From Extensimonas soli (lineage in GTDB: Bacteria > Pseudomonadota > Gammaproteobacteria > Burkholderiales > Burkholderiaceae_C), in assembly GCF_029211265.1 (NCBI RefSeq), contig NZ_JARGEL010000021.1, positions 1 to 24,000 on the forward strand: a stretch of DNA of 24,000 bases, written 5' to 3'. This document shows positions 6,590 through 18,240 of the stretch, piece after piece. The translations under genes and the position numbers were made by a program. Numbering within the stretch: the stretch's first letter is position 1; each line of letters starts with the position of its first letter. The notes below the pieces were generated by a model. That model worked only from the letters and a program-made list of their open reading frames with translations, made no database searches and was not told the origin of the DNA.

Positions 6590-7111
6590 TTAGACAGCCT
6601 TTTCCCAGGTTCCTACCCCGTTAAATCCGTCGCGAGGGAATATCGTGATGGGATGTGTTGCGACATATTTTCTGCCTTCTAAATCCCGGTAATAAATCTT
6701 GACTTCGGCACTGGCCCCGTATTGAAGTTGGGGCTTTCCTGCGCCCGACTCACTGGCGCTTCCAAGACCTGCCTTGAGTGTTTCGCCGTTACGGATTATT
6801 GGAATCGTGGTTTCTTCCTTGAAGCAGTCATGCAGCAACTTGCGTTCATGTTGGCTGGCGTTTGGATCAATCAATTTTTCTAGTTCACTGGGCTTTATTC
6901 TTATGCTTATTCTCACTGCTGGCCTGCTGCCTGTATTTGAGATGCAGAAATTGAAGAGCGCAATACCCGCTCCGATTGAATCCTCTTCAACAAAGGCGCA
7001 TACGATCGGCCGATTTCCCTCTAGCCAATTGCGTCGTGTTAGCCATATGGAAATTAACGAAATAGCCAAGGCGGCAATGGTTGCGAGTGTTTTGTAGTCG
7101 TCTGCGGTCAT
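6590..7111 (-). CDS. Hypothetical N-terminally membrane-anchored protein on a small low-GC block
   Basis: 173-aa ORF in markedly AT-richer DNA than its flanks. It has one N-terminal TM helix (LATIAALAISLISIWL) followed by a beta-rich soluble domain. I recognise no family. Confidence 0.5.
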   Translation of the reverse strand: MTADDYKTLATIAALAISLISIWLTRRNWLEGNRPIVCAFVEEDSIGAGIALFNFCISNTGSRPAVRISIRIKPSELEKLIDPNASQHERKLLHDCFKEETTIPIIRNGETLKAGLGSASESGAGKPQLQYGASAEVKIYYRDLEGRKYVATHPITIFPRDGFNGVGTWEKAV

Positions 7112-7401: not shown

Positions 7402-8307
7402 CTACAACGCCCACACCCGTGGCGCAGTCGCCGGTCGTTGCCAGAAATGCGTCCGCCAGGCGGCGCGCAGCGCGCGGGCGAGGGCCATGGCGGGTTCGAC
7501 CTGGGGCGCGAGCATGCGCGCGAGCAGCAGTTGCGGGTGCGGGCTGGTGGCGCCGGCAGTGAGGGCGAGCGGGTGCGGGGCGATCACCGCACGCGCGGCG
7601 TCCAGCGCTGTTTCGCGCTGGGCGGGGGTCAGCGCCGTGCCGCTGGCAAAAAACACGCTTGCGAGGCAGCCGTGCCCAGCCAGGCCCAGCGGGCTGTGCA
7701 GCAGGTGCTGGTCGGCCGCGGCGATGGTGCCGCGCTCCAGCCAGACGCCGGGTATTTCGAGATGCTGCAGCAGGCGCCCCGATGCGGCAGGCGGCGCGGC
7801 GTCGGTCGGGTCGGGGGCATGGGCAGCGTGGACGGTATTCGCGGATGGTGTGGCCTGTGCGACGTGCGCGGGATCGGGCATCCAGCCCAACGCCGTCACG
7901 TCCCAGCCCAGACATTGCGCGCCGGGTTCGAGGGTGAGGCTGAGGTGGTTTTCGGCTTCGCTGGCGCGGTAGCACAGGGTTTCGAGCGGCAGCCATTCGA
8001 GGCGTGCGTCGGCTTGCAGCCGCAGTTGCGTGATCTGGCGCGCAGTCGCGCCTGCGCTGCGGTAAAAGCGCGTGGCGCCGGGGGTGGTGAGCAGGGCGTG
8101 CGTGCCGCTGGCTGCATCGACGGTGACTTGCAGCGTGTCGCCGCCCACGAGCCCACCCGGCGGGTGCACGAGCACGTTGTGGCAAATGTCTGCACCTTCG
8201 GGGTACAGACTTTGCAGGATGCGCAGCGGGCCCTGGTGGGTGTAGCGCGCCACGGTGCGCTGCGCTTGCAGGGTGTAGGCCAGGTGCAGGTGCGCGTGCC
8301 AGGTCAT
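7402..8307 (-). CDS. ureD: Urease accessory protein UreD (UreH)
   Basis: 301 aa with UreD-like blocks (LRILQSLYPEG...VLVHPPGGLVGGDTL, LLTTPGATRFYRS, EWLPLETL). It lies on the strand opposite to urt, and no ureA follows it. Confidence 0.85.
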   Translation of the reverse strand: MTWHAHLHLAYTLQAQRTVARYTHQGPLRILQSLYPEGADICHNVLVHPPGGLVGGDTLQVTVDAASGTHALLTTPGATRFYRSAGATARQITQLRLQADARLEWLPLETLCYRASEAENHLSLTLEPGAQCLGWDVTALGWMPDPAHVAQATPSANTVHAAHAPDPTDAAPPAASGRLLQHLEIPGVWLERGTIAAADQHLLHSPLGLAGHGCLASVFFASGTALTPAQRETALDAARAVIAPHPLALTAGATSPHPQLLLARMLAPQVEPAMALARALRAAWRTHFWQRPATAPRVWAL

Positions 8308-8389: not shown

Positions 8390-9180
8390 TGAGGTCAAGG
8401 GGGTGTCCGGGTCGGATGGGCTTGCGGCGCGTGTCAAGGTAGTTGTCGCCTCATTCATGCAGCCACCGGCTGTCTATCGGAGTCGCCTGAATGCGTCTGG
8501 ACGATCGAGTCGCGTTCGGGGTTGAGGGTGACTGGGCCGATGGGCGACCAGTTGCGTGTCTTGCCCGACCAGCGAGCCGGATGGGCCTGGCGAGCCCGTG
8601 CATACAGTTCATGTCGCGCCGCCAGGATCGCACGATCCTCGCCCGCATGGCGCTGCGCGGGGCTCACGTAGCGGATGCCGCTGTGCCGATGCTCGTGGTT
8701 GTACCAATGCACGAAGCCAGCCGCCCAGGCGCGCGCGGCCTCCAGGTCGGCAAAGCCCTTGGCGGGGAACTGCGGGCGGTACTTGGCCGTGCGGAACAAG
8801 GACTCGGCATAGGCGTTGTCGTCGCTCACGCGCGGACGCGAGTACGAGGGCTTGACCCCCAGCCAATCGAGCATCGCCAGCACCGTGGTGGCCTTGAGCG
8901 TGGAGCCATTGTCGCCATGCAGCACCGGCTTGGCATCCAGCGCGGCAATGCCCTCGGCCAGCGCCGTGCGGCGCACCAGGTGGGCGGCATGCTGCGAATC
9001 ATCGGTTGCGTGCACCTCCCAGCCCACGATCTTGCGGCTGTACAAGTCCAGGATCAGGTACAGGTGAAACCAGCGCCCCAGCACAGCAGCCGGCAGATAG
9101 GTCATGTCCCAGCACCACACCTGGCGCGGTGCGGTGGCGATGTGCGTGGAGGAGGCAATTTCAATGTCTCGGTTCGCCAA
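8390..9180 (-). mobile_element. IS3-family insertion sequence remnant (3' ~0.8 kb only; orfA and the 5' part of orfB are missing)
   Basis: A TG-initiated terminal sequence TGAGGTCAAGGGGGTG at about 8390 is a plausible terminal inverted repeat. It is followed by a transposase core ORF. High-GC IS sequence stops abruptly at about 9180, where AT-rich island DNA begins. Confidence 0.7.
8455..9180 (-). pseudogene. IS3-family transposase OrfB (rve/DDE integrase core), 5'-truncated
   Basis: The DDE core is recognisable: QVWCWDMTYLP (D), LHGDNGS (D), AYAESLFRTAKYE-like (E), and HWYNHEHRHSGI. Only about 20 aa precede the first catalytic block, whereas intact OrfB proteins have about 100 or more. There is no upstream orfA or frameshift region. 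Confidence 0.8.
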
Positions 9181-9217
9181 ATTTCAGAGTGTAAATATTC
9201 TCTATGAATAGGCTATT

Positions 9218-9234
9218 TGTTCCGAATTGGAACA
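9218..9234. promoter_or_regulatory. Candidate operator/UAS, palindrome TGTTCC-GAATT-GGAACA (copy 1)
   Basis: 17-bp sequence with perfect 6-bp inverted arms. An identical copy lies 67 bp downstream. Both are 340-420 bp upstream of xmoC in AT-rich DNA. Confidence 0.4.
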
Positions 9235-9284
9235 ATATTTTAGGGTGGCATAACCAAGTTAAAACTGAAGATCCCCTGATATGT

Positions 9285-9301
9285 TGTTCCGAATTGGAAC
9301 A
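9285..9301. promoter_or_regulatory. Candidate operator/UAS, palindrome TGTTCC-GAATT-GGAACA (copy 2)
   Basis: Exact 17-bp repeat of 9218-9234. It is followed by a TATAAA hexamer at 9311-9316. Confidence 0.4.
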
Positions 9302-9641
9302 GTGCCTCGGTATAAACCCTAGGCCCCATATCGCAAGACGCAAACTCTCGTTAAACTTAAAGGGTGCTGGCTGTAGAAAGTCGCGCTCGCAGAGGACGTC
9401 CGGTTCCACGTCGCATGAAGGATGCAATGCGCTCGGGATTTATGTGTTCTGCGGCAGCTTCGAGCGAAGAGATGGACCTGCTGCCACAGCCATGGTCGGT
9501 CATGGTGCAACCTTTCAAAGGAAGGCGCGGGTCTGGAGTTCAGGTTGGCTTCGGCTTTTCGTTCTGAGCATGCTTTCAGTGGATTCTATGGCAGAGCACA
9601 CAATGGAGGCGGTAGTTTTTTTTCAACTGTAGGAGGTTGTC

Positions 9642-10436
9642 ATGTCAGCAGTAATCAACTCTGTCGGGAGGGACTCTCAAAAAGTCTCAAGCACTGACGA
9701 TAAGATGTTCAAAGTTGCCCCGGTGGCAATCGTCTGGGGTATTTTGCTTGCCATTTACCTTGGGTTGCGGGTCTACCAGCAAGAGTTCGCATTTAGCGTT
9801 GGTCTGGATTCGACTGCGCCCGAATTCGCCACGCACTGGATGGCGTTGCTGAAATTCGAGTTACCTGTGATATTTGGCTCGGGGGCGATAATATGGGCTT
9901 ACTTGTGGTTTACCCGTGACCGCAACATGGATGCACTGACTCCCAAGGAGGAGTTGCGTCGGTATTTTTCGCTCGTCAGTTGGTTCTTGCTTTATACCTT
10001 CGCCTTCCTGTGGATTGCCGGCTTTTTCGGCGAAGGTGATGCCGTCTGGCATCAAACGGTTGTGCGGGATACCTCCTTTACGCCCAGTCACATCGTTGTG
10101 TTCTATGCGTGCGTGCCAACCTATATCGTGTTTGGTGTAAGCGCACTGCTGTACGCAACGACGCGTCTGCCCCTTTTTGCCAAAAGGTATTCGGTGCCGT
10201 TGATCATGGTCGTTCTGGGGCCGGGCCTGATTTTGCCCAATCTTGGCTTCAATGAATGGGGGCACGCTTTCTGGTTGACTGAAGAAATCTTTAGCCATCC
10301 ACTGCATTGGGGTTTTCCGATTCTTGGCTGGACAGGTTTTGCTCTGGGCGGAGTTTTGTTGCAAGTGCTGAATCGCATGTACCAATTGTTTAGGCAAATC
10401 GATGGGTCGCCCGTAACGGACGCCACGGCTGCCTGA
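9642..10436 (+). CDS. xmoC: Copper membrane monooxygenase subunit C (AmoC/PmoC family)
   Basis: 264 aa, strong RBS AGGAGG 6 nt upstream. The hallmark block GDAVWHQTVVRDTSFTPSHIVVFY carries the CuC-site triad spacing D-x3-H-x12-H (D133, H137, H150). NEWGHAFWLTEEIFSHPLHW carries the CuD-type N-x3-H-x13-H (N204, H208, H222). Multiple TM helices. Confidence 0.93.
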   Translation: MSAVINSVGRDSQKVSSTDDKMFKVAPVAIVWGILLAIYLGLRVYQQEFAFSVGLDSTAPEFATHWMALLKFELPVIFGSGAIIWAYLWFTRDRNMDALTPKEELRRYFSLVSWFLLYTFAFLWIAGFFGEGDAVWHQTVVRDTSFTPSHIVVFYACVPTYIVFGVSALLYATTRLPLFAKRYSVPLIMVVLGPGLILPNLGFNEWGHAFWLTEEIFSHPLHWGFPILGWTGFALGGVLLQVLNRMYQLFRQIDGSPVTDATAA

Positions 10437-10450
10437 GACTTAGAAAATGG

Positions 10451-10512
10451 GAGAGTTCCTAAACCAGTTTGAAAAGGAAGAATTGCTTCCAAAATTCCGG
10501 TTTAGGACTCTC
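10451..10512 (+). other. Nested intercistronic stem-loop in the xmoC-xmoA spacer
   Basis: The outer stem is GAGAGTTCCTAAACC (10451-10465) / GGTTTAGGACTCTC (10499-10512), 14 bp with one bulged T. The inner hairpin is GGAAG-AATTG-CTTCC (10476-10490). Confidence 0.55.
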
Positions 10513-10533
10513 TGAAACAAGGGGATATATCAA

Positions 10534-11346
10534 ATGAATAGCAACGACCAAGCCATCCTGGCTATCTCGGGGCTCTCACCGCAAACTTTGCGATGGTCAC
10601 GAACTTTTGACATGTTAATCATCGTGATCGCCGCGTTCTTGGTGTGGGCGGTGAGTCACATCAACTTTCTGTTGCTTGCGGGTGATTGGGACTTTTTTAT
10701 TGACTGGAAAGATCGGCAGTATTGGGTTCTGATCATGCCGATTTCGACGATCATCACTGCAGCGGCCTTTCAGTCGATATTCTGGAACCTATTTAGGCTT
10801 CCCATCGGAGCCACCGCCAGCATGATGCTGTTGCTGATCAGCGTATGGATCGTGCGTTATCACGGCTGGCATACCTGGGCGGGTTTCCCTCTCAGTCTGG
10901 TTGTGCCGGCATCGTGCGTGATGGGGGCAATTGTGATGGACACTATCTTGGTCATTACGCGCAGTTGGGTCCTTACAGGGGTCTTTGGAGGGGTGCTGTT
11001 TTCGGTGCTCTTTTTTCCCAGCAACTGGACTTATTTGGCGCCTTATTTCCTTCCTGTGGAGCACATGGGTGAGGTGGCTCCAATCGCCGATATTATTGGT
11101 TATACATTCCCGCGTACGGCGACGCCCGAATATATTCGCATCATTGAACGTGGAAACCTCAGGACCTTCGAGGATTCGGCAAGCTGGGTATCAGCTGCCT
11201 TCGGCGGTTTTCTCTGCATATTTATCTATTGGATTTTTTGGACAGTCGGTGTTGTGGCCTGCAGCACTAAGTCGATTGCAGTGGGTCAGCGCTTTATGAT
11301 GCTGTTCGGTTTCAAGGGCAATAAAGGCGCGGAGGTGACTCAATGA
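10534..11346 (+). CDS. xmoA: Copper membrane monooxygenase subunit A (AmoA/PmoA family)
   Basis: 270 aa. Diagnostic blocks are GDWDFFIDWKDRQYW and PRTATPEYIRIIERGNLRTF (compare AmoA/PmoA GDWDFW.DWKDR and RTGTPEY.R..E.G.LRTF). Polytopic membrane protein. The stop overlaps the xmoB start (ATGA). Confidence 0.93.
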   Translation: MNSNDQAILAISGLSPQTLRWSRTFDMLIIVIAAFLVWAVSHINFLLLAGDWDFFIDWKDRQYWVLIMPISTIITAAAFQSIFWNLFRLPIGATASMMLLLISVWIVRYHGWHTWAGFPLSLVVPASCVMGAIVMDTILVITRSWVLTGVFGGVLFSVLFFPSNWTYLAPYFLPVEHMGEVAPIADIIGYTFPRTATPEYIRIIERGNLRTFEDSASWVSAAFGGFLCIFIYWIFWTVGVVACSTKSIAVGQRFMMLFGFKGNKGAEVTQ

Positions 11347-12605
11347 TTTTCCTCCTGAAAAGAATCACGATGCTGCTGATGGCGGTATCGGCCCTGATGG
11401 TTGGGCTGATGCCTGGCGTGGCGATGGCGCATGGAGAGCGTGCAACGGAGCCATACATCAGAACGCGTACCGTTCATTGGTATGACGTCAAGTGGTCTAC
11501 AGAAAAGGTCAACGTGAACGACCAAGTTGTCGTTACGGGGAAATTCAGGCTTTTCGGCGACTGGCCCGAGGCGGTGAGTCTCCCTAATTTGACCTATCTT
11601 GGAAACGGAGCGCCGTCAGCAATGCTGGTGCGAGAGGAGACCTACATCAACGGAATTCCTGCGCGCCAATCGCATAAGGATCTGGTGCTTGGTAGGGACT
11701 ATGACTTCAAAATAGTGTTGCGTGGGCGGGTTCCAGGGAAGTGGCACTTTCACCCAATGCTCAACGTTTCAGGCGCAGGTCCGATCATCGGGCCAGGAGA
11801 CTGGATTGAGGTCGTGGGCAATCGTGCGGACTTCAAGCAGTCGTTAACGACCATGCATGGCTTGAAAATCGACGATCTCGAGACTTATGGGGTCAAGAAC
11901 GCACAAATTTGGCAGGCCGGGCACGTGCTGCTGGCGATTGTTTGGTTGCTATGGTGGCTTCGTCGCCCGCTGATAATTCCTCGCTGGAGAGCCAAGGAGC
12001 AAGGGCGGGACGATCTGCTTGTCACGCGAACCGATGATCGCATGGCGGTGGTGTTTTTTGTCGTAGTGCTAGCGGTTGTCATTATTGGGTTCACCCAGGT
12101 CAAGAAAAACTATCCACAACTCGTTCCGTTGCAGGCGGGTGTGGAAAAGCCGGAGCCACTTCCGGCAGGGCCTCAGTGGGTGACGGTGAAGTACAAACGC
12201 GCAGAATACGACGTGCCAGGTCGGAGCATGCGAATCGTGGCTGAGTTTGAAAATCTATCTGACCGGGCAGTGACCATTGGTGAGTTTGATACAGCAAATC
12301 TCCGCTTCGTCAACAAGGCTTCTCCAGTCGCTCTGAAGGCGGTGGATCCGAAATATCCCAAAGAATTGTTACCTGCACATGGCTTGGTATTGGACAAGCA
12401 GGAGCCGCTGCAGCCAGGCGAGAAAAGAACGGTGGTTCTGAACGCCACAGACGCGGCTTGGGAAGTTGAGCGGCTCGTGAGCTTCCTGACGAACGTCGAT
12501 AGCCGGACTGGCGGGTTGATCTTCTTCTATGACGAGAAGGGAAATCGCTCGATCAGTGAAGTCTCCGGACCTATCTTGCCTGTCTTCAAAGGAGCCAGGA
12601 TTTGA
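11343..12605 (+). CDS. xmoB: Copper membrane monooxygenase subunit B (AmoB/PmoB family)
   Basis: 420 aa. The signal peptide ends VAMA|HGERATEPYIRTRTVHWYD, giving a mature N-terminal His (H30). An HxH motif is present in KWHFHPMLNVSGAGPIIGPGDW (H135, H137). Two central TM helices separate two cupredoxin-like domains, as in PmoB. Confidence 0.93.
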   Translation: MIFLLKRITMLLMAVSALMVGLMPGVAMAHGERATEPYIRTRTVHWYDVKWSTEKVNVNDQVVVTGKFRLFGDWPEAVSLPNLTYLGNGAPSAMLVREETYINGIPARQSHKDLVLGRDYDFKIVLRGRVPGKWHFHPMLNVSGAGPIIGPGDWIEVVGNRADFKQSLTTMHGLKIDDLETYGVKNAQIWQAGHVLLAIVWLLWWLRRPLIIPRWRAKEQGRDDLLVTRTDDRMAVVFFVVVLAVVIIGFTQVKKNYPQLVPLQAGVEKPEPLPAGPQWVTVKYKRAEYDVPGRSMRIVAEFENLSDRAVTIGEFDTANLRFVNKASPVALKAVDPKYPKELLPAHGLVLDKQEPLQPGEKRTVVLNATDAAWEVERLVSFLTNVDSRTGGLIFFYDEKGNRSISEVSGPILPVFKGARI

Positions 12606-13540
12606 TCAAGGGGCCTGCGGATGGATGGCGTGCTGAGGGTGCTCCACAGCTGCCGTCAATACGCCATCATCTGCGGAGCCCTTGGTCATTTATTGCATGC
12701 CTGATAGCTTTGCTATTACTGAGTGCGTGCGAAGGTCCTCAGACGAAGATTCTTCGCACGCCAATGGTGCATGATTACGGAGAGGATGCCATTGGAGAAA
12801 ACCGTTGCGAGCGGCGGGTGCCGCCGCAAGGGGAAAAGGAGCAGTTCGGCGGATGGAAGTTTCAAGATGGAGGAAGTCGATATCTCGTCAAGGTCCCTGT
12901 CAATTACGAAGAAAGCCGTATGCACCCATTGCTGGTGGTTTTTTCTCCAGCTGGAGCAAGCGCTGAAGACAACGAGCGATTCACGCGTCTGACGCCCGTT
13001 GCCACCGAAAAAGGATTCGTGGTAGCTTATATAGCAAGTAGGCCGATGAGCCTTGCTAGCGTAAAAGCTCAAGCAAAAGTGATTGGGACACTGATGGCGG
13101 GCTGGTGCATAGATCCGAAACAAGTCTTTTTTGCTGGACATTCGGATGGGGGGACAGTATCAACAATATTGGCTCTGTTGCCTGAGTCGCGTGGAGTCGC
13201 AAGCGGAATTGCAGTCAGCGCTGCAGGCGTATTGCCCTTAGATACACAGCCGATGGGCTGCCCCTCAAAGCCGCTGAAGGTGTTGCTAATGCATGCGGAA
13301 GACGACACACACTTCCCAGGATATGGTCGCAAAATGGCGCAATGGTGGTCGCAGTGTTTTCGCTGTACTGGTGTAGAGGCAAAGCCGGATGCAAAGGGAT
13401 GTAGGAATTATATTGGGTGCGAATCAAGCGAGCTGAAGTTTTGCGAAGGGTCTGGTGGACACACAAAATGGCCCGCTATGCAGAGTGAAATGTTGAATTT
13501 TTTTCTGTCGAAACAACTGGACAACCCAAGGGGACAATAA
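12602..13540 (+). CDS. Lipoprotein alpha/beta-hydrolase (PHB-depolymerase/esterase-like serine hydrolase)
   Basis: 312 aa. The only canonical start is TTG at 12602, overlapping the xmoB stop. Lipobox LLLSAC. Nucleophile elbow GHSDGG, with candidate triad Asp (HAEDDTHF) and His (GSGGHTKW). The layout resembles the esterase/PHB depolymerase family (LLVVFSP...GFVVAY...FFAGHSDGG). Confidence 0.65.
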   Translation: MIKGPADGWRAEGAPQLPSIRHHLRSPWSFIACLIALLLLSACEGPQTKILRTPMVHDYGEDAIGENRCERRVPPQGEKEQFGGWKFQDGGSRYLVKVPVNYEESRMHPLLVVFSPAGASAEDNERFTRLTPVATEKGFVVAYIASRPMSLASVKAQAKVIGTLMAGWCIDPKQVFFAGHSDGGTVSTILALLPESRGVASGIAVSAAGVLPLDTQPMGCPSKPLKVLLMHAEDDTHFPGYGRKMAQWWSQCFRCTGVEAKPDAKGCRNYIGCESSELKFCEGSGGHTKWPAMQSEMLNFFLSKQLDNPRGQ

Positions 13541-14157
13541 TGAGGTTTTGGTCAAAAATTGCTCGAACGGCCATCTTTGGCGATGGCACTGTACGTCGAG
13601 CTGTGTGGCCTTTTTTAGCGCTGTGCTGCAGCATGGCAGCGCCGATGGCAATGGCGCACGGTGGCCTCAGCATGGATCAGGACAAGTGTGTGCTCAGGGT
13701 CGGTCCTTATTTTATGCATTTCGCTGGCTACCAGCCCAGCAGTAGTGGGGCTACGGAGTTTTGTGAGGATATTCCAGCGGCCGGCCAGACGGTAGTGACG
13801 ATCGACGCGATCGACGACGCGCTACGATCTATGCCGCTACAAGTAAGAATAGTTCGAGACACCGGAGCTCCACCCGCGGAGCCGCCACGCGAGGCAGACA
13901 CAGTGCTGTATATACCTCCCAAGTTGTATCCAGCAGGCAGCGTGTCGTTTGAATATAAATTCGATGGTCCGGGGAAATTTGTTGGCTATGTACAGGCAGG
14001 TGACAATGGTCAGCATGTGTCCAGGTTTCCATTCAGTGTCGGTCGCACACAAAGTGTTTGGAGTAGCATGATGCCATATGTGGGCCTGGGTACGCTGGCG
14101 TTACTGTTGTTGGCGTACACAGGAAGGCGGCGGATATCATCCAAGTCGGTCAATTAA
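13540..14157 (+). CDS. Secreted, C-terminally membrane-anchored protein with predicted mature N-terminal His; PmoD/AmoD-like architecture (unverified)
   Basis: 205 aa. The start overlaps the upstream stop (TAATG). The signal peptide ends PMAMA|HGG. It has a ~135-aa periplasmic domain with Cys50, Met59-His60 and Cys75, plus one C-terminal TM helix (YVGLGTLALLLLAY) and a basic tail. Its position after the CAB genes mirrors amoE/amoD and pmoD. Confidence 0.55.
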   Translation: MRFWSKIARTAIFGDGTVRRAVWPFLALCCSMAAPMAMAHGGLSMDQDKCVLRVGPYFMHFAGYQPSSSGATEFCEDIPAAGQTVVTIDAIDDALRSMPLQVRIVRDTGAPPAEPPREADTVLYIPPKLYPAGSVSFEYKFDGPGKFVGYVQAGDNGQHVSRFPFSVGRTQSVWSSMMPYVGLGTLALLLLAYTGRRRISSKSVN

Positions 14158-14331: not shown

Positions 14332-14838
14332 ATGAATATCAATATGAATCAAAGCATGGCCAGTCGAGCTGGCGTTATTTGTGCAATGGTGTGCGCGACG
14401 TTCTTGCCGATAAGTGCTGTCAATGCTGGCATGCATGATCACGCGGGTCATGCCAACGATAAAGCGGTTTCCAAGCCAGTGGAGAAAGGGGATTTCCCGT
14501 CCTTGCGATTCCTCTCGCCGAAGTCTAACGACAAAATTGGTCGTGTTATCACCGTTGAGTTCGAGACACCTGCGGACTTGACGAAAATGACAATGGGGGG
14601 TGGGGTGGTGGGTGTCCATCTTCATTTGGACTTGGATGGAGCGGTCATGATGCCAACCAGCTCCGAACTGACCCGTACTGCCAAGGACCGTTACCGTTAC
14701 ACCTTCGATCTGCCAGTGAAGCCCGGAACACACGTCGTAAAGATCTATTGGTCTGATAGCATGCATAAGACAATAGAAGAATCAGTTCAGACGGTCCGCT
14801 TCACGGTGGTAGAAGGGCAATCTGGAGATAAGCAGTGA
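14332..14838 (+). CDS. Periplasmic His-rich Ig-like protein (DUF4399-like), putative copper-binding
   Basis: 168 aa. The signal peptide ends AVNA|GMHDHAGHAND. The body resembles DUF4399 proteins (LRFLSPKSNDKI...VTVEFE, GVHLHLDLDG, PGTHVVKIYWSD). The stop overlaps the copC GTG start (GTGA). Alternative in-frame ATGs exist at 14344 and 14356. Confidence 0.6.
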   Translation: MNINMNQSMASRAGVICAMVCATFLPISAVNAGMHDHAGHANDKAVSKPVEKGDFPSLRFLSPKSNDKIGRVITVEFETPADLTKMTMGGGVVGVHLHLDLDGAVMMPTSSELTRTAKDRYRYTFDLPVKPGTHVVKIYWSDSMHKTIEESVQTVRFTVVEGQSGDKQ

Positions 14839-15209
14839 GTCGACGCAGCGCGCTCAAGGCAATGCTGGGCGCATCCTGCTTGGTGCTGCTGGCACCATTT
14901 GCACGTGCTCATGCGGGACTCGAAAAGTCCGAACCTGCACGACGCGCGACACTGAGCAAGGCGCCTAAGAAAATCCGGCTGTGGTTTAACGAACGTCTCG
15001 AGCCTGATTACGCCTCGGTAAAGCTCTACGGAGAAGATGGCGAGAAGCTAATAGAGACGCCTAAGGCCGTGGTCGACGCCATGGATCCCAAGTTGTTAGA
15101 GATGGAGTTGCCGCCTCTGCCGCCGGGCCAGTACACAGTGAAGTACCGTGTGCTGTCGGTTGATGGGCACACGGTTGACTACGGTTACGTTTTCACAATA
15201 AAGCCCTAG
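14835..15209 (+). CDS. copC: Copper chaperone/resistance protein CopC (Cu(II)-site type)
   Basis: 124 aa. The signal peptide ends ARA|HAGLEKSEP, the classic CopC mature N-terminus H-x-x-L-x-x-S-x-P. A D-x-H motif occurs in LSVDGHTV. There is no Met-rich Cu(I) loop. Confidence 0.85.
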   Translation: MSRRSALKAMLGASCLVLLAPFARAHAGLEKSEPARRATLSKAPKKIRLWFNERLEPDYASVKLYGEDGEKLIETPKAVVDAMDPKLLEMELPPLPPGQYTVKYRVLSVDGHTVDYGYVFTIKP

Positions 15210-15395: not shown

Positions 15396-17471
15396 GTGCT
15401 GGAGTTTTCGATAGCGATACGCTGGATCATGCTGGTCAGCGCTAGTGCACTGCTTGGGGCGCTGACACTGATGCTCCTGTCCGGCAAAGGTGGAGGTGCG
15501 GCTGCCGACCAATGGAGGGGCAAGCTTCAAAACATCGGTGCAGTGCTGATCGCAGGGTGGATCGCGTTCTCCTTCGTGGCATTGGGTGTGCAGGCGGCGG
15601 CCGTTACCGGTCACACGGAGGCGGCATGGACGTGGCGCGAGTGGCGTCATGTGCTGGAGAACACGCGTTTCGGTGCAATCTGGATGCTCCGGCTGCTGGT
15701 CGGGGTGAGCCTTCTGGTTTTGCTGCTGTGGCAACGCAGAAGGCGGATGGTTCGACGGGAAGGCCTGATTGCGGCGTGGGTGTTGGCAGTGATAGTCCAG
15801 TGTGCTGCCGCTTGGTCAGGACATGGTGCTGCGCTTGAGCCTGCTGTGATTGGGCTAGGTGCTGTGGCGGCTCACCTATTGTGCGCAGGGATTTGGGCCG
15901 GAGCATTGCCTTGGTTGGTGCTGGGCTTCGGTCAGGCCGCACATGCCAACGCTTCCTCTGAGTACAAACAATGGATGCGATCCGTTTTGGTGCGATTTTC
16001 AGCGCTGGCCACTGTCGGTGTCTTGGTCATTTTGGCCTCCGGCACCGTGATGACCTATTTGTTGGTCGAGGCGCCCAAAGAATGGCCTGCGCGTGCAGGT
16101 GACTGGCTGGCCGGTGCATCGACCGTGCTCGAGAGGGTCGTCGCGCCGTTGCTTTCCACCCGTTTTGGAACCTGGGTTCTGATCAAGATCGGCTTGTTTC
16201 TGATCATTTTGTGGCTGGCCTCCGGTGTGCGTTGGCGTGACCTGCCGCGCATTGCATCCGGCAATGCCCAATCGTGGGCGGGAGCACGTCGTAGCGTGTT
16301 GCTCGAGGCCTTGGTCGTCGCAGCGTTGCTGTGTGCGGCGGCGATAGCCGCCTCTTCAATACCCGCGGCCCACGACACCATGGTATGGCCGCTGCCGTTC
16401 CGAGTATCGATGGCTGCGACTTGGAGCCAGCCGAATGTACCAATGTGGTTCGCGCTGGCGAGTTTCGGCCTCGTGATTGCTTTGGTAATCGGTGCGCGAC
16501 CCTGGGTACGTCTCCTGACGCGAAAACAGCTCGAAAAGAAAGATGTTTGGAGAGCCATCTTGGGTGCAGGTTCCATGCTGGCGGCGACGGGTACGATGTT
16601 ATGGCTCCTGGCTGTTCCAGCCTATCCGGAGACCTACTTGAAAAGTGACGTAGCCTATGACGCAGTGTCGATTGCGCGAGGAACGGGCCTATATCCGCGT
16701 CATTGCGCGCAGTGTCACGGAGTCGGAGCGCACGGGGACGGACCGCTGGCAACGAAGCTTGCCAAGCGGCCAGCTGATCTGTCGCAGCCGCACACGGCGC
16801 TGCATACAGCTGGCGACATCTTCCACTGGATCACGTATGGCATAGCGAATTCCCCGATGCCGGGATTTCGTGGCATTACCACGGACGACGACCGTTGGGA
16901 CCTTGTCAACTTTCTGCGTCTGTTCTCTTCAGGCCATCAGGCCCGCATTTTGACACCTAGAGTGGTTCAGGGTCAGCCATGGCTCGGAGCGCCAAACTTC
17001 GACTATGTCGACGCGCAAAGCATATCGGGCTCGCTCAAGGAGCTGCGTGGTCACGTCGTACTCCTTGTCTTTTACACGCTCCCGACTTCGCAAAAGAGGT
17101 TCGCGCAACTGGTCGCGCTGCAAGCGCGTATGCGGGAGCGGGGCGTGGAAATAGTCGCTGTACCGCTGCCAGGTTCACAGGCAGCTGATGCAGCTTCTTT
17201 GCCGTTCATATTGCCGGTTGATGGTGCTGCAGAAATCGCAAGGGCTTACCTTCTCCTTCGTCGAACCAAGGACGACGCTGGAAGAACAGTGGCCGATGAG
17301 GTGCCTGCGCATATGGAGTTTCTCATTGACCGCTTCGGTTACGTGCGGGCCCGCTGGGTGGATGTGCCGAAGTCACAAGAGTGGCGCGACGAGGGTTTTT
17401 TGCTGCGGCAGATTGAACTGTTGAACGAGGAGCCACGTCTGATGCCGTCGCCAGACGACCATGTTCATTGA
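15396..17471 (+). CDS. copD: CopD-family copper transport membrane protein fused to a c-type cytochrome domain and a Cys-less peroxiredoxin/thioredoxin-like domain
   Basis: 691 aa, GTG start. The N-terminal ~410 aa is polytopic and CopD-like. The heme-binding motif CAQCH lies at nt 16704-16718, with a downstream ...NSPMPGF Met ligand candidate. The C-terminal ~150 aa resembles the Prx/redoxin fold (GHVVLLVFYTLPTSQKRF, HMEFLIDRFGYVRARW) but has no Cys where the peroxidatic/CxxC Cys would be. Confidence 0.8.
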   Translation: MLEFSIAIRWIMLVSASALLGALTLMLLSGKGGGAAADQWRGKLQNIGAVLIAGWIAFSFVALGVQAAAVTGHTEAAWTWREWRHVLENTRFGAIWMLRLLVGVSLLVLLLWQRRRRMVRREGLIAAWVLAVIVQCAAAWSGHGAALEPAVIGLGAVAAHLLCAGIWAGALPWLVLGFGQAAHANASSEYKQWMRSVLVRFSALATVGVLVILASGTVMTYLLVEAPKEWPARAGDWLAGASTVLERVVAPLLSTRFGTWVLIKIGLFLIILWLASGVRWRDLPRIASGNAQSWAGARRSVLLEALVVAALLCAAAIAASSIPAAHDTMVWPLPFRVSMAATWSQPNVPMWFALASFGLVIALVIGARPWVRLLTRKQLEKKDVWRAILGAGSMLAATGTMLWLLAVPAYPETYLKSDVAYDAVSIARGTGLYPRHCAQCHGVGAHGDGPLATKLAKRPADLSQPHTALHTAGDIFHWITYGIANSPMPGFRGITTDDDRWDLVNFLRLFSSGHQARILTPRVVQGQPWLGAPNFDYVDAQSISGSLKELRGHVVLLVFYTLPTSQKRFAQLVALQARMRERGVEIVAVPLPGSQAADAASLPFILPVDGAAEIARAYLLLRRTKDDAGRTVADEVPAHMEFLIDRFGYVRARWVDVPKSQEWRDEGFLLRQIELLNEEPRLMPSPDDHVH

Positions 17472-18240
17472 TTGGGAAAAACTTGACATGAGATATCTTT
17501 CATTGGCCATTGCCGTTGCCGCATATGGGCTTTTCGCCGGTACCTTCGCAGCACTCTTGCTGTTCATGCATGATTATTTTTCGCCGTCGTGGGGTGCTGG
17601 CGTCGACGTCTGCAGCCATGACCTACTCAACCACATCGGCGTCGACAGCGCATTGATAGTCTTGTTCGGGTTGCAGCACAGCATCATGGCGCGTCGGTCT
17701 TTCAAGCAGCGATGGACCCGTATCGTGCCGCAGCATTTGGAGCGGACCGCTTACGTGATCGCATCGAGTGTCGCATTGATCGTGATGATGGTGTATTGGC
17801 ACCCAATTCCGATGCTCGTTTGGGAGGCTGGGTCTGTAGTGATGTGGTGGCTGAGTATTGCGGCGGGTGTGATGGGGGTCGTTATTGTCCTGTGGTCAAC
17901 ATTTTTGACAGATCATTTTGAACTCTTCGGCCTTCGCCAGGCTTATCTCCACGACCGAGGCATCGCTTGGACGCCGGTACCTTTCAAGAAGGCAGCGCTT
18001 TACAACTTCGTGCGCCATCCGATGATGCTCGGCATGTTGATCCTGCTGTGGGTCACCCCGCGCATGACCCAGGGTCATCTAGTGCTCGCCCTGGGTTTCA
18101 CGCTGTACGTGCTGATCGGGGTGTATTTTGAGGAGCGGGATCTACGCCGTGAACTCGGGCCCGAGTATGAGAGCTACCGGCGTTCCACACCCATGCTGAT
18201 TCCTCGGCTGTGGCCGGTTGCCCCAAACGGGGCAAGTTGA
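17461..18240 (+). CDS. ICMT/PEMT-family integral membrane methyltransferase (MddA-like)
   Basis: 259 aa with multiple TM helices. The C-terminal signature is LYNFVRHPMMLGMLILLW...YFEERDLRRELGPEYESYRRSTPMLIP, typical of isoprenylcysteine carboxyl / phospholipid methyltransferase-like enzymes. The GLQHSIMARRSFK block is as I recall in methanethiol S-methyltransferase-like proteins. It overlaps the copD stop by 11 nt (alternative ATG at 17491). Confidence 0.65.
   Translation: MFIDWEKLDMRYLSLAIAVAAYGLFAGTFAALLLFMHDYFSPSWGAGVDVCSHDLLNHIGVDSALIVLFGLQHSIMARRSFKQRWTRIVPQHLERTAYVIASSVALIVMMVYWHPIPMLVWEAGSVVMWWLSIAAGVMGVVIVLWSTFLTDHFELFGLRQAYLHDRGIAWTPVPFKKAALYNFVRHPMMLGMLILLWVTPRMTQGHLVLALGFTLYVLIGVYFEERDLRRELGPEYESYRRSTPMLIPRLWPVAPNGAS

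Follow-up and report, generated by a model that had tools for sequence, protein, structure and literature searches.

A copper membrane monooxygenase cassette acquired by the heterotroph Extensimonas soli, with a short-chain hydrocarbon as its probable substrate

What copper membrane monooxygenases (CuMMOs) oxidize in organisms other than nitrifiers and methanotrophs is unproven, and these enzymes are known mostly from metagenome-assembled genomes (MAGs) and single-cell genomes. Among them, the enzymes of Solimonas and Bradyrhizobium have been listed as being of unknown function (Khadka et al. 2018, PMC6215863). Here we describe a gene cluster of this kind, xmoCAB and six further genes, in Extensimonas soli H3M7-6T, an aerobic heterotroph of the Comamonadaceae that comes from coking-plant soil and was re-streaked on R2A (PMC11936349). 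The cluster lies within positions 1 to 24,000 of contig NZ_JARGEL010000021.1, a 24-kb stretch that we refer to as the window. Eight proteins encoded in the window are exact matches to Extensimonas sp. H3M7-6 (E. soli), on a contig of 140.8 kb. We consider it probable that the cluster is a complete CuMMO cassette, acquired by this heterotroph, whose substrate is a short-chain hydrocarbon. The enzyme is an addition to the known CuMMO group, and we do not claim it as a new kind of enzyme.

The XmoCAB of Solimonas aquatica DSM 25927 and Bradyrhizobium falls in the same XmoA clade as the E. soli enzyme (59% XmoA identity). Solimonas shares with E. soli the order xmoCAB, pmoD homolog, copC and copD-cytochrome c fusion as well as a DUF4399-like gene, and it has a homolog of the E. 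soli esterase-like gene nearby. The two clusters differ in their surroundings and in detail: that of Solimonas is flanked by PQQ and Zn alcohol dehydrogenases, a sigma-54 activator and a GMC oxidoreductase, all of which are absent in E. soli, whereas in E. soli the esterase-like gene directly follows xmoB and the final gene of the cluster is MddA-like. A second likeness, one of description, is to the xmoCABD clusters of Rhodoferax and Polaromonas, which reportedly form three lineages, likewise belong to Comamonadaceae that are neither nitrifying nor methanotrophic and have a predicted alkane substrate (Rochman et al. 2020, ISME J 14:714). Those clusters come from single-cell genomes while E. 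soli is a cultured type strain.

The better-known CuMMOs are more distant. The amoCAB(ED)-copCD clusters of ammonia-oxidizing bacteria (AOB), whose ammonia monooxygenase (AMO) is represented by structures 9cl6 and 9pxf, have the same subunits, the same CuB, CuC and CuD ligands, and a pmoD/amoD homolog with copCD downstream. In contrast to these, the E. soli XmoA scores under the AmoA cut-off and falls away from the AOB branch, hao is absent from the window, and the host is a heterotroph. We know of no counterpart in AOB clusters for the esterase-like, DUF4399-like and MddA-like genes. The particulate methane monooxygenases (pMMOs) of Methylococcus capsulatus Bath and Methylocystis (1yew, 7s4h, 4phz) have ligands equivalent to those of E. 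soli column for column, but E. soli has lost one half of the bis-His site, has Val at the position of PmoA E100, and has a neighborhood without C1 genes. Finally, the actinobacterial hydrocarbon/butane monooxygenases, namely the hydrocarbon monooxygenase (HMO) of Mycolicibacterium chubuense NBB4 and the Rhodococcus CuMMO, offer a functional analogy only, in their use of C2-C4 hydrocarbons. The actinobacterial HMO belongs to a different deep branch with 27-34% XmoB identity, and its biochemistry is not transferable by homology.

The three hydroxylase subunits of E. soli are encoded together in the order C-A-B, each above its Pfam gathering score, as expected of the CuMMO superfamily. An initial annotation, made from the sequence alone, had described xmoCAB as free of frameshifts and as retaining all known CuMMO copper ligands. 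The open reading frames (ORFs) are indeed intact, and in alignments to structurally characterized pMMO and AMO the residues that it listed coincide with the CuB, CuC and CuD ligands. By direct counting, XmoB has H30 (after AMA), H135 and H137, and XmoC has D133, H137 and H150 together with N204, H208 and H222; the PRTATPEYIRIIERGNLRTF motif of XmoA begins at residue 193. The alignment of XmoC to M. capsulatus PmoC is free of gaps (residues 33-243 of the query on 56-266 of the chain, an offset of +23), and the six XmoC residues land on PmoC D156/H160/H173 and N227/H231/H245, which correspond to the published CuC and CuD ligand numbers of the Bath enzyme. All six are likewise conserved in the alignment to PmoC of Methylocystis sp. 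M (51% identity over 217 ungapped positions). In XmoB, H135 and H137 correspond to H137 and H139 of M. capsulatus PmoB (alignments to 9leg, 6cxh and 3rgb). Mature PmoB and AmoB chains start at the residue that aligns to XmoB H30 (11ll, 9pxf, 9cl6, 3chx, 7s4m), which supports cleavage of XmoB at AMA|H30. XmoB has a predicted signal peptide, two periplasmic domains and two transmembrane helices, with H30/H135/H137 as its CuB site. The structure of the Nitrosococcus AMO shows two extra ligands, D146 and E218 (PMC13058606), and these are matched by XmoC D143 (CuC) and E215 (CuD). Judged from these alignments, the ligand positions are homologous at E values of about 1e-70, and chance motifs are ruled out.

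The statement that every known ligand is intact does not extend to two further positions. In XmoB, R69 takes the place of H72 of the bis-His site, a site not known outside the Bath enzyme, and XmoA V104 (positions 10843-10845) lies at the position of PmoA E100, a residue of the contested tricopper site. At the E100 position, V, T, A or I is found in 113 of 115 homologs from outside the AOB and methane-oxidizing bacteria, and Glu in both Protein Data Bank (PDB) references; with two references only, the V104 position may be a clade signature. XmoA E199 corresponds to PmoA E195. As a separate observation, the A-x-A rule predicts that three proteins of the cluster would begin with His after maturation: XmoB (AMA|HGE, positions 11343-11432), the PmoD homolog (AMA|HGG, 13540-13659) and CopC (ARA|HAG, 14835-14912).

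We asked where these subunits stand among CuMMOs using a neighbor-joining tree of 117 XmoA sequences with two references, N. briensis AmoA and M. alcaliphilum PmoA. The E. soli XmoA clusters with S. aquatica, Bradyrhizobium and MAGs labelled Vitreoscilla, Burkholderiaceae, Sterolibacterium and Gammaproteobacteria. This clade is apart from both references and from a second non-AOB group, so that XmoA does not group with AOB AMO, here a single sequence. The NCBIfam scores divide by subunit: XmoA falls below the cut-offs of AmoA_BACT (261.5 against 290) and TIGR03080 (230 against 318), while XmoC exceeds that of AmoC_BACT (337 against 319) and XmoB that of AmoB_BACT (528 against 336). An AOB AMO should pass with all three subunits, and the E. 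soli enzyme does not. Bit scores against AMO and pMMO chains in the PDB are about equal for all three. The scores of XmoC and XmoB over the AmoC_BACT and AmoB_BACT cut-offs are the reason that PGAP, the annotation pipeline of NCBI, names both proteins "bacterial ammonia monooxygenase", which is likely a misannotation. From tree and scores, XmoA is placed in a Solimonas/Bradyrhizobium-type clade, outside AOB AMO and pMMO.

All nine genes of the cassette are under purifying selection. The related metagenomic locus L004 (84% nucleotide identity, 92% XmoA identity) carries all nine, in unchanged order, beside the same host kinase flank. Between the two loci, dN/dS is 0.046 for xmoC, 0.052 for xmoA and 0.117 for xmoB, and 0.12-0.17 for the six accessory genes. 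At a dS of 0.4-0.9, these low values indicate that all nine genes have been kept by selection since the split from L004. XmoCAB is therefore very likely an intact CuMMO maintained by selection. Since the dN/dS of xmoCAB is 0.05-0.12 and a full set of copper-accessory genes is present, catalytic competence seems plausible. In some JGI contigs that are about 99% identical, xmoC or xmoA is split by single-base homopolymer deletions. We rejected pseudogenization as an explanation because deletions of the same type occur in the host kinase gene and none is present in four other assemblies; the deletions are sequencing artifacts. Contigs about 99% identical to both the island and its host flank are L016, L017, L018 and L020 (JGI 3300019106, 3300018772, 3300019140 and 3300018672); with near-identical contigs in several JGI and SRA/ENA samples, the organism, or its contamination, appears widespread.

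What might this enzyme oxidize? When the long ORFs of either strand were scanned with Pfam, no hao, cycAB, alcohol or aldehyde dehydrogenase or methanol dehydrogenase gene was found in the 24-kb window and no regulator gene in the island. This agrees with the initial annotation, which had seen no hydroxylamine oxidoreductase, no alcohol or aldehyde dehydrogenase and, in the island, no transcription factor, and had concluded that the substrate cannot be inferred from context. That conclusion holds for the window taken alone. It does not hold once related loci are brought in: the tree and five of seven further xmoCAB contexts (59-92% XmoA identity) allow the substrate to be narrowed, because the relatives' xmoCAB genes adjoin genes of alcohol or aldehyde oxidation and acyl-CoA metabolism. 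In these five (59-77% XmoA identity), genes leading from a hydrocarbon to an acyl-CoA lie next to xmoCAB together with a regulator. L008 (77%) has an HTH_8 regulator, a TodX/FadL porin, an aldehyde dehydrogenase and an acetyl-CoA hydrolase/transferase. L011 (69%) encodes a MimR_N-GAF-HTH_8 regulator, an aldehyde dehydrogenase, an acyl-CoA ligase and CoA transferases, and L013 (65%) a TetR protein, acyl-CoA dehydrogenases, an enoyl-CoA hydratase, a PrpD-like protein and CoA transferases. L021 (62%) combines a CRP-type regulator with an IcmF-like fused mutase and a PQQ dehydrogenase with cytochrome c. The Solimonas locus, L022 (59%), has a PQQ alcohol dehydrogenase-cytochrome c, a Zn alcohol dehydrogenase, a sigma-54 activator, a GMC oxidoreductase and an acyl-CoA ligase. 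Such a gene set would be expected for the conversion of a hydrocarbon to an alcohol, an aldehyde and an acyl-CoA, with handling of C3-C4 units.

Judged by clade and by the relatives' neighborhoods, the natural substrate is most likely a C2-C4 alkane or alkene. By homology, XmoC, XmoA and XmoB would assemble into the usual trimeric inner-membrane hydroxylase. Genes elsewhere in the genome would supply the dehydrogenases that handle the alcohol product. The version shared by E. soli and L004 is a stripped-down cassette, with the hydroxylase and the copper and accessory genes only. This agrees with the study of Rochman et al., which by its title ties novel CuMMOs to alkane-utilizing Betaproteobacteria. 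Several points weigh against a hydrocarbon substrate. Neither this locus nor L004, its closest relative, contains the catabolic genes or the regulator, so the reading rests on relatives of at most 77% XmoA identity. The aldehyde dehydrogenases and CoA transferases of those relatives are generic and would also fit oxygenated substrates such as acetone. XmoB is only 27-34% identical to the Mycolicibacterium and Rhodococcus enzymes, so close homology to a characterized hydrocarbon CuMMO is lacking, and the tree behind the clade placement is a neighbor-joining tree with two references. The CuMMOs of Solimonas, Polaromonas and Rhodoferax are still given as being of unknown function by Awala et al. 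(PMC8630023). The description of E. soli reports very narrow carbon use with no gaseous alkanes among the tests, and mentions no monooxygenase, ammonia oxidation or gaseous alkanes (PMC11936349).

Four other accounts of the cassette have to be weighed against a short-chain hydrocarbon, together with a variant of one of them. The PGAP name, and the XmoC and XmoB scores behind it, would suit a true AMO that carries out heterotrophic nitrification in this member of the Comamonadaceae. So would the order xmoCAB, pmoD homolog, copCD, which resembles the AOB cluster (see the legend to Fig. 1 of PMC6189053), the urea-uptake genes 3 kb away, and the general ability of CuMMOs to co-oxidize ammonia (PMC6215863). 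However, XmoA misses the AmoA_BACT cut-off and lies in a clade apart from the AOB reference, and neither hao nor cycAB is present in the window. The urt genes sit in the high-GC host flank, which is syntenic in E. perlucida without the island; the relatives' neighborhoods are those of carbon catabolism, not of nitrogen; and nitrification, like ammonia oxidation, goes unmentioned in the species paper (PMC11936349). We therefore regard this account as very unlikely. Still less probable, to our minds, is a variant in which the enzyme genuinely oxidizes ammonia without a dedicated downstream pathway, giving nitrification in an isolate from ammonia-rich coking-plant soil, with the esterase-like, DUF4399-like and MddA-like proteins as new CuMMO support factors, for instance in conditioning membrane lipids or thiols. 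The lowest standing goes to a pMMO used for facultative methane oxidation. The best PDB match of XmoC is Methylocystis PmoC (248 bits) and all pMMO ligands are conserved, yet the bit scores of pMMO and AMO chains are about equal in each subunit and XmoA lies far under the TIGR03080 cut-off. Moreover, no methanol dehydrogenase or other C1 gene occurs in the window or in the neighborhood of any relative examined, and the IcmF-like mutase and the PrpD-like protein near the relatives' xmoCAB point instead to C3-C4 acyl-CoA metabolism. Related betaproteobacterial CuMMO hosts, too, reportedly failed to assimilate methane (Rochman et al. 2020).

The two remaining accounts are unlikely rather than remote. 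One holds that the substrate is small and oxygenated, or at any rate not an alkane, with acetone as an example, and that the periplasmic esterase is part of the pathway. The regulator of L011 has a MimR_N domain, and a propane/acetone monooxygenase is under the control of MimR. Across the clade the esterase-like gene accompanies xmoCAB, its catalytic triad kept, and conversion of acetone to acetol is documented for another CuMMO, PmoCAB3 of Methylacidiphilum (PMC8630023). On the other hand, none of the neighborhoods showed a Baeyer-Villiger monooxygenase or a gene for handling acetol, PQQ or Zn alcohol dehydrogenases of the kind that fits alcohols derived from alkanes are present in two relatives, and a homolog from the wider esterase family in Nitrospira is not linked to amo. 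The other account, to which we give nearly the same low standing, is that the cassette is silent or co-metabolic cargo that lost its regulator and catabolic genes and contributes nothing to growth. The island does lack a regulator and downstream genes, an IS3 remnant abuts its upstream region, closer relatives such as L008 hold extra catabolic genes within the same cluster, and the base composition is not adjusted to the host. But the low dN/dS of all nine genes is hard to reconcile with cargo, the palindromes and leader upstream of xmoC are conserved, and a second lineage has this stripped-down cassette at the same place in its chromosome. A short-chain hydrocarbon thus remains the substrate that we favor.

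Beyond xmoCAB, which was the subject of the initial annotation, the analysis added a PmoD homolog, copCD, an esterase-like gene, a low-GC island, an IS3 remnant and a twin palindrome (Table 1).

Table 1. Features of the xmoCAB island and its left border (window positions; aa, amino acids)
Feature	Position	Strand	Product	Best family evidence or remark
IS3-family transposase remnant, left island edge	8455-9180	-		Pfam rve + rve_3; NCBIfam transpos_IS3
Palindrome TGTTCCGAATTGGAACA, two copies	9218-9234, 9285-9301 (region 9217-9302)	+
Conserved leader 5' of xmoC	9303-9641	+		ends in Shine-Dalgarno AGGAGG
xmoC	9642-10436	+	264 aa	Pfam AmoC, E 3.5e-88, 295.5 bits
xmoA	10534-11346	+	270 aa	Pfam AMO, E 5.6e-74, 249.5 bits
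xmoB	11343-12605	+	420 aa	Pfam Monooxygenase_B, E 9.6e-134, 446.8 bits
Esterase-like alpha/beta hydrolase gene	12602-13540	+	312 aa	weak NCBIfam match, PHA-depolymerase catalytic domain
PmoD/AmoD homolog	13540-14157	+	205 aa	phmmer vs PmoD 6cpd, E 2.6e-18
DUF4399-like periplasmic Ig-like protein gene	14332-14838	+	168 aa
copC	14835-15209	+	124 aa	Pfam CopC, E 1.8e-24; NCBIfam copper_CopC
copD-cytochrome c fusion	15396-17471	+	691 aa	Pfam CopD, Cytochrom_C, AhpC-TSA; NCBIfam copper_CopD
MddA-like/NnrU-family membrane methyltransferase gene, last of the island	17461-18240	+	259 aa	Pfam NnrU

The six genes after xmoB look like a maturation and support set, not a catabolic pathway. The PmoD homolog follows xmoCAB in every relative in which that region is sequenced. 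It has the architecture of its family, with a signal peptide, a periplasmic cupredoxin-like domain, the two invariant cysteines of the family (C50 and C75), and a hydrophobic C-terminus. The PmoD family and its CuA motif, Cx7MxH, have been defined previously (PMC6189053). In the E. soli protein this motif is altered to C50-x7-F-M-H60, with F58 at the position of Met49. Because the Met49 ligand is replaced, formation of a CuA site appears doubtful under the rule given in PMC6189053. CopC and CopD likely serve in copper uptake and loading. CopD is fused to a cytochrome c domain with the c-type heme motif CAQCH, and the same fusion is found in L004, L008, L021, L022 and L023. The AhpC/TSA thioredoxin-like domain at the C-terminus of this fusion has no Cys in the matched region and is for that reason probably not redox-active.

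The esterase-like, DUF4399-like and MddA-like genes appear as companions specific to this clade. The esterase-like protein is a putative periplasmic lipoprotein (lipobox LLSAC) with the triad S181/D235/H287; the GHSDG motif, D235, H287 and seven cysteines do not vary among 20 homologs. Its AlphaFold2 model (pLDDT 86.8) is closest in fold to feruloyl and acetyl-xylan esterases and PHB depolymerases. With near-identical copies excluded, the gene is beside or near xmoCAB in 7 of 8 related loci (L004, L008, L011, L015, L021, L022 and L023), a linkage that extends down to 59% XmoA identity. The idea that the family is always linked to CuMMOs was rejected for the wider family, given its Nitrospira member. 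In the 168-aa DUF4399-like protein, which has no Pfam match of its own, the N-terminus is rich in His, and H96, H98, D102, M107 and H145 are invariant. The core of its AlphaFold2 model is a beta-sandwich, for which Foldseek returns Ig-like folds and, weakly, CopC. Its family is rare, with 173 cluster representatives among 1.84 billion, and distant members touch DUF4399. The gene is beside or near copCD in L004, L008, L022 and L023, and the protein, to judge from its residues, probably binds metal. The MddA-like protein matches the NCBIfam model MeththiolMtaseMddA over its full length (E 1.4e-68), with 230.7 bits against a cut-off of 270 bits, that is, below it. The gene is conserved in L004 and L008, and one might speculate that the enzyme protects the copper enzyme from thiols or modifies lipids.

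The nine genes, headed by xmoCAB, are co-directional and tightly packed in an island of about 9 kb. The low-GC stretch runs from about 9.2 to 18.3 kb, with a GC content of about 0.51, whereas that of the flanks is about 0.68; GC3 is 0.49-0.67 in the island genes and 0.85-0.90 in host genes. Because the composition differs from that of the host and an IS3 remnant marks the left edge, we conclude that the cassette was horizontally acquired, and a donor of lower GC fits the composition. The remnant holds the catalytic rve part only, without orfA (positions 210-368 of 369 of the transpos_IS3 model), and homology to L004 begins at 9194, just past it. No convincing direct repeats flank or delimit the island, Rfam and tRNA scans gave no matches, and the empty site was not recoverable from E. 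perlucida, in which synteny stops right after urtE. A plasmid origin was considered and rejected, as PLSDB holds distant CuMMOs only. By Pfam, the flanks encode urtABCDE, an orphan ureD, a hybrid histidine kinase, gcvP and gcvH. The ureD gene (7402-8307, minus strand) has no ureABC nearby; the E. soli strain is urease-negative, as is E. vulgaris. In the segment 6450-8454, a low-GC ORF of 173 aa (6590-7111, minus strand) without a family match replaces an HNH-domain gene of E. perlucida. PADLOC found no matches for this ORF, the esterase-like protein or the 168-aa protein.

The sequence upstream of xmoC suggests how the cassette could be controlled. The perfect palindrome TGTTCCGAATTGGAACA occurs there twice, 67 bp apart; these are its only matches in the 24 kb, where 0.02 would be expected by chance, and both are kept in L004 though adjacent bases differ. 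Over 9181-9660, mean column identity to L004 is 87%, and by inspection the longest conserved runs lie in about the last 300 nt before xmoC. A 142-aa ORF at 9204-9632, without a Pfam match, is probably not a gene, and the leader itself matches no Rfam family. The twin palindromes look like operator sites, and a regulator encoded outside the island would control expression through them. By inspection, a possible weak -35 element that lies 18 nt 5' of TATAAA is overlapped by the second copy; a consensus promoter scan called nothing there. A sigma-54 promoter 5' of xmoC was rejected as a candidate, as matches to TGGCAC-N5-TTGC occur across the window at or below chance. The palindrome was not found upstream of xmoC in more distant relatives, whose regulators differ from one another: HTH_8 (L008), MimR_N-GAF-HTH_8 (L011), TetR (L013), CRP-type (L021) and a sigma-54 activator (L022). 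The regulators of L008 and L011 lack the sigma-54 AAA+ domain and are hence not called sigma-54 activators here.

The value of the locus lies in its culturable host, in the likely misannotation as AMO and in its conserved, unexplained accessory genes. The name "bacterial ammonia monooxygenase", if given to such enzymes in surveys, could inflate counts of nitrifiers. Among the XmoA matches listed, all organism-named ones above 59% identity are MAGs, and a search of a genome collection gave a single match, a MAG contig at 81% identity. The presence of the cassette in a culturable type strain (JCM 36176, CGMCC 1.61336) makes questions about this clade testable: what the substrate of the Solimonas/Bradyrhizobium-type enzymes is, whether PmoD, CopCD and the clade-specific esterase are needed, and how a bare hydroxylase and copper module works after transfer to a new host.

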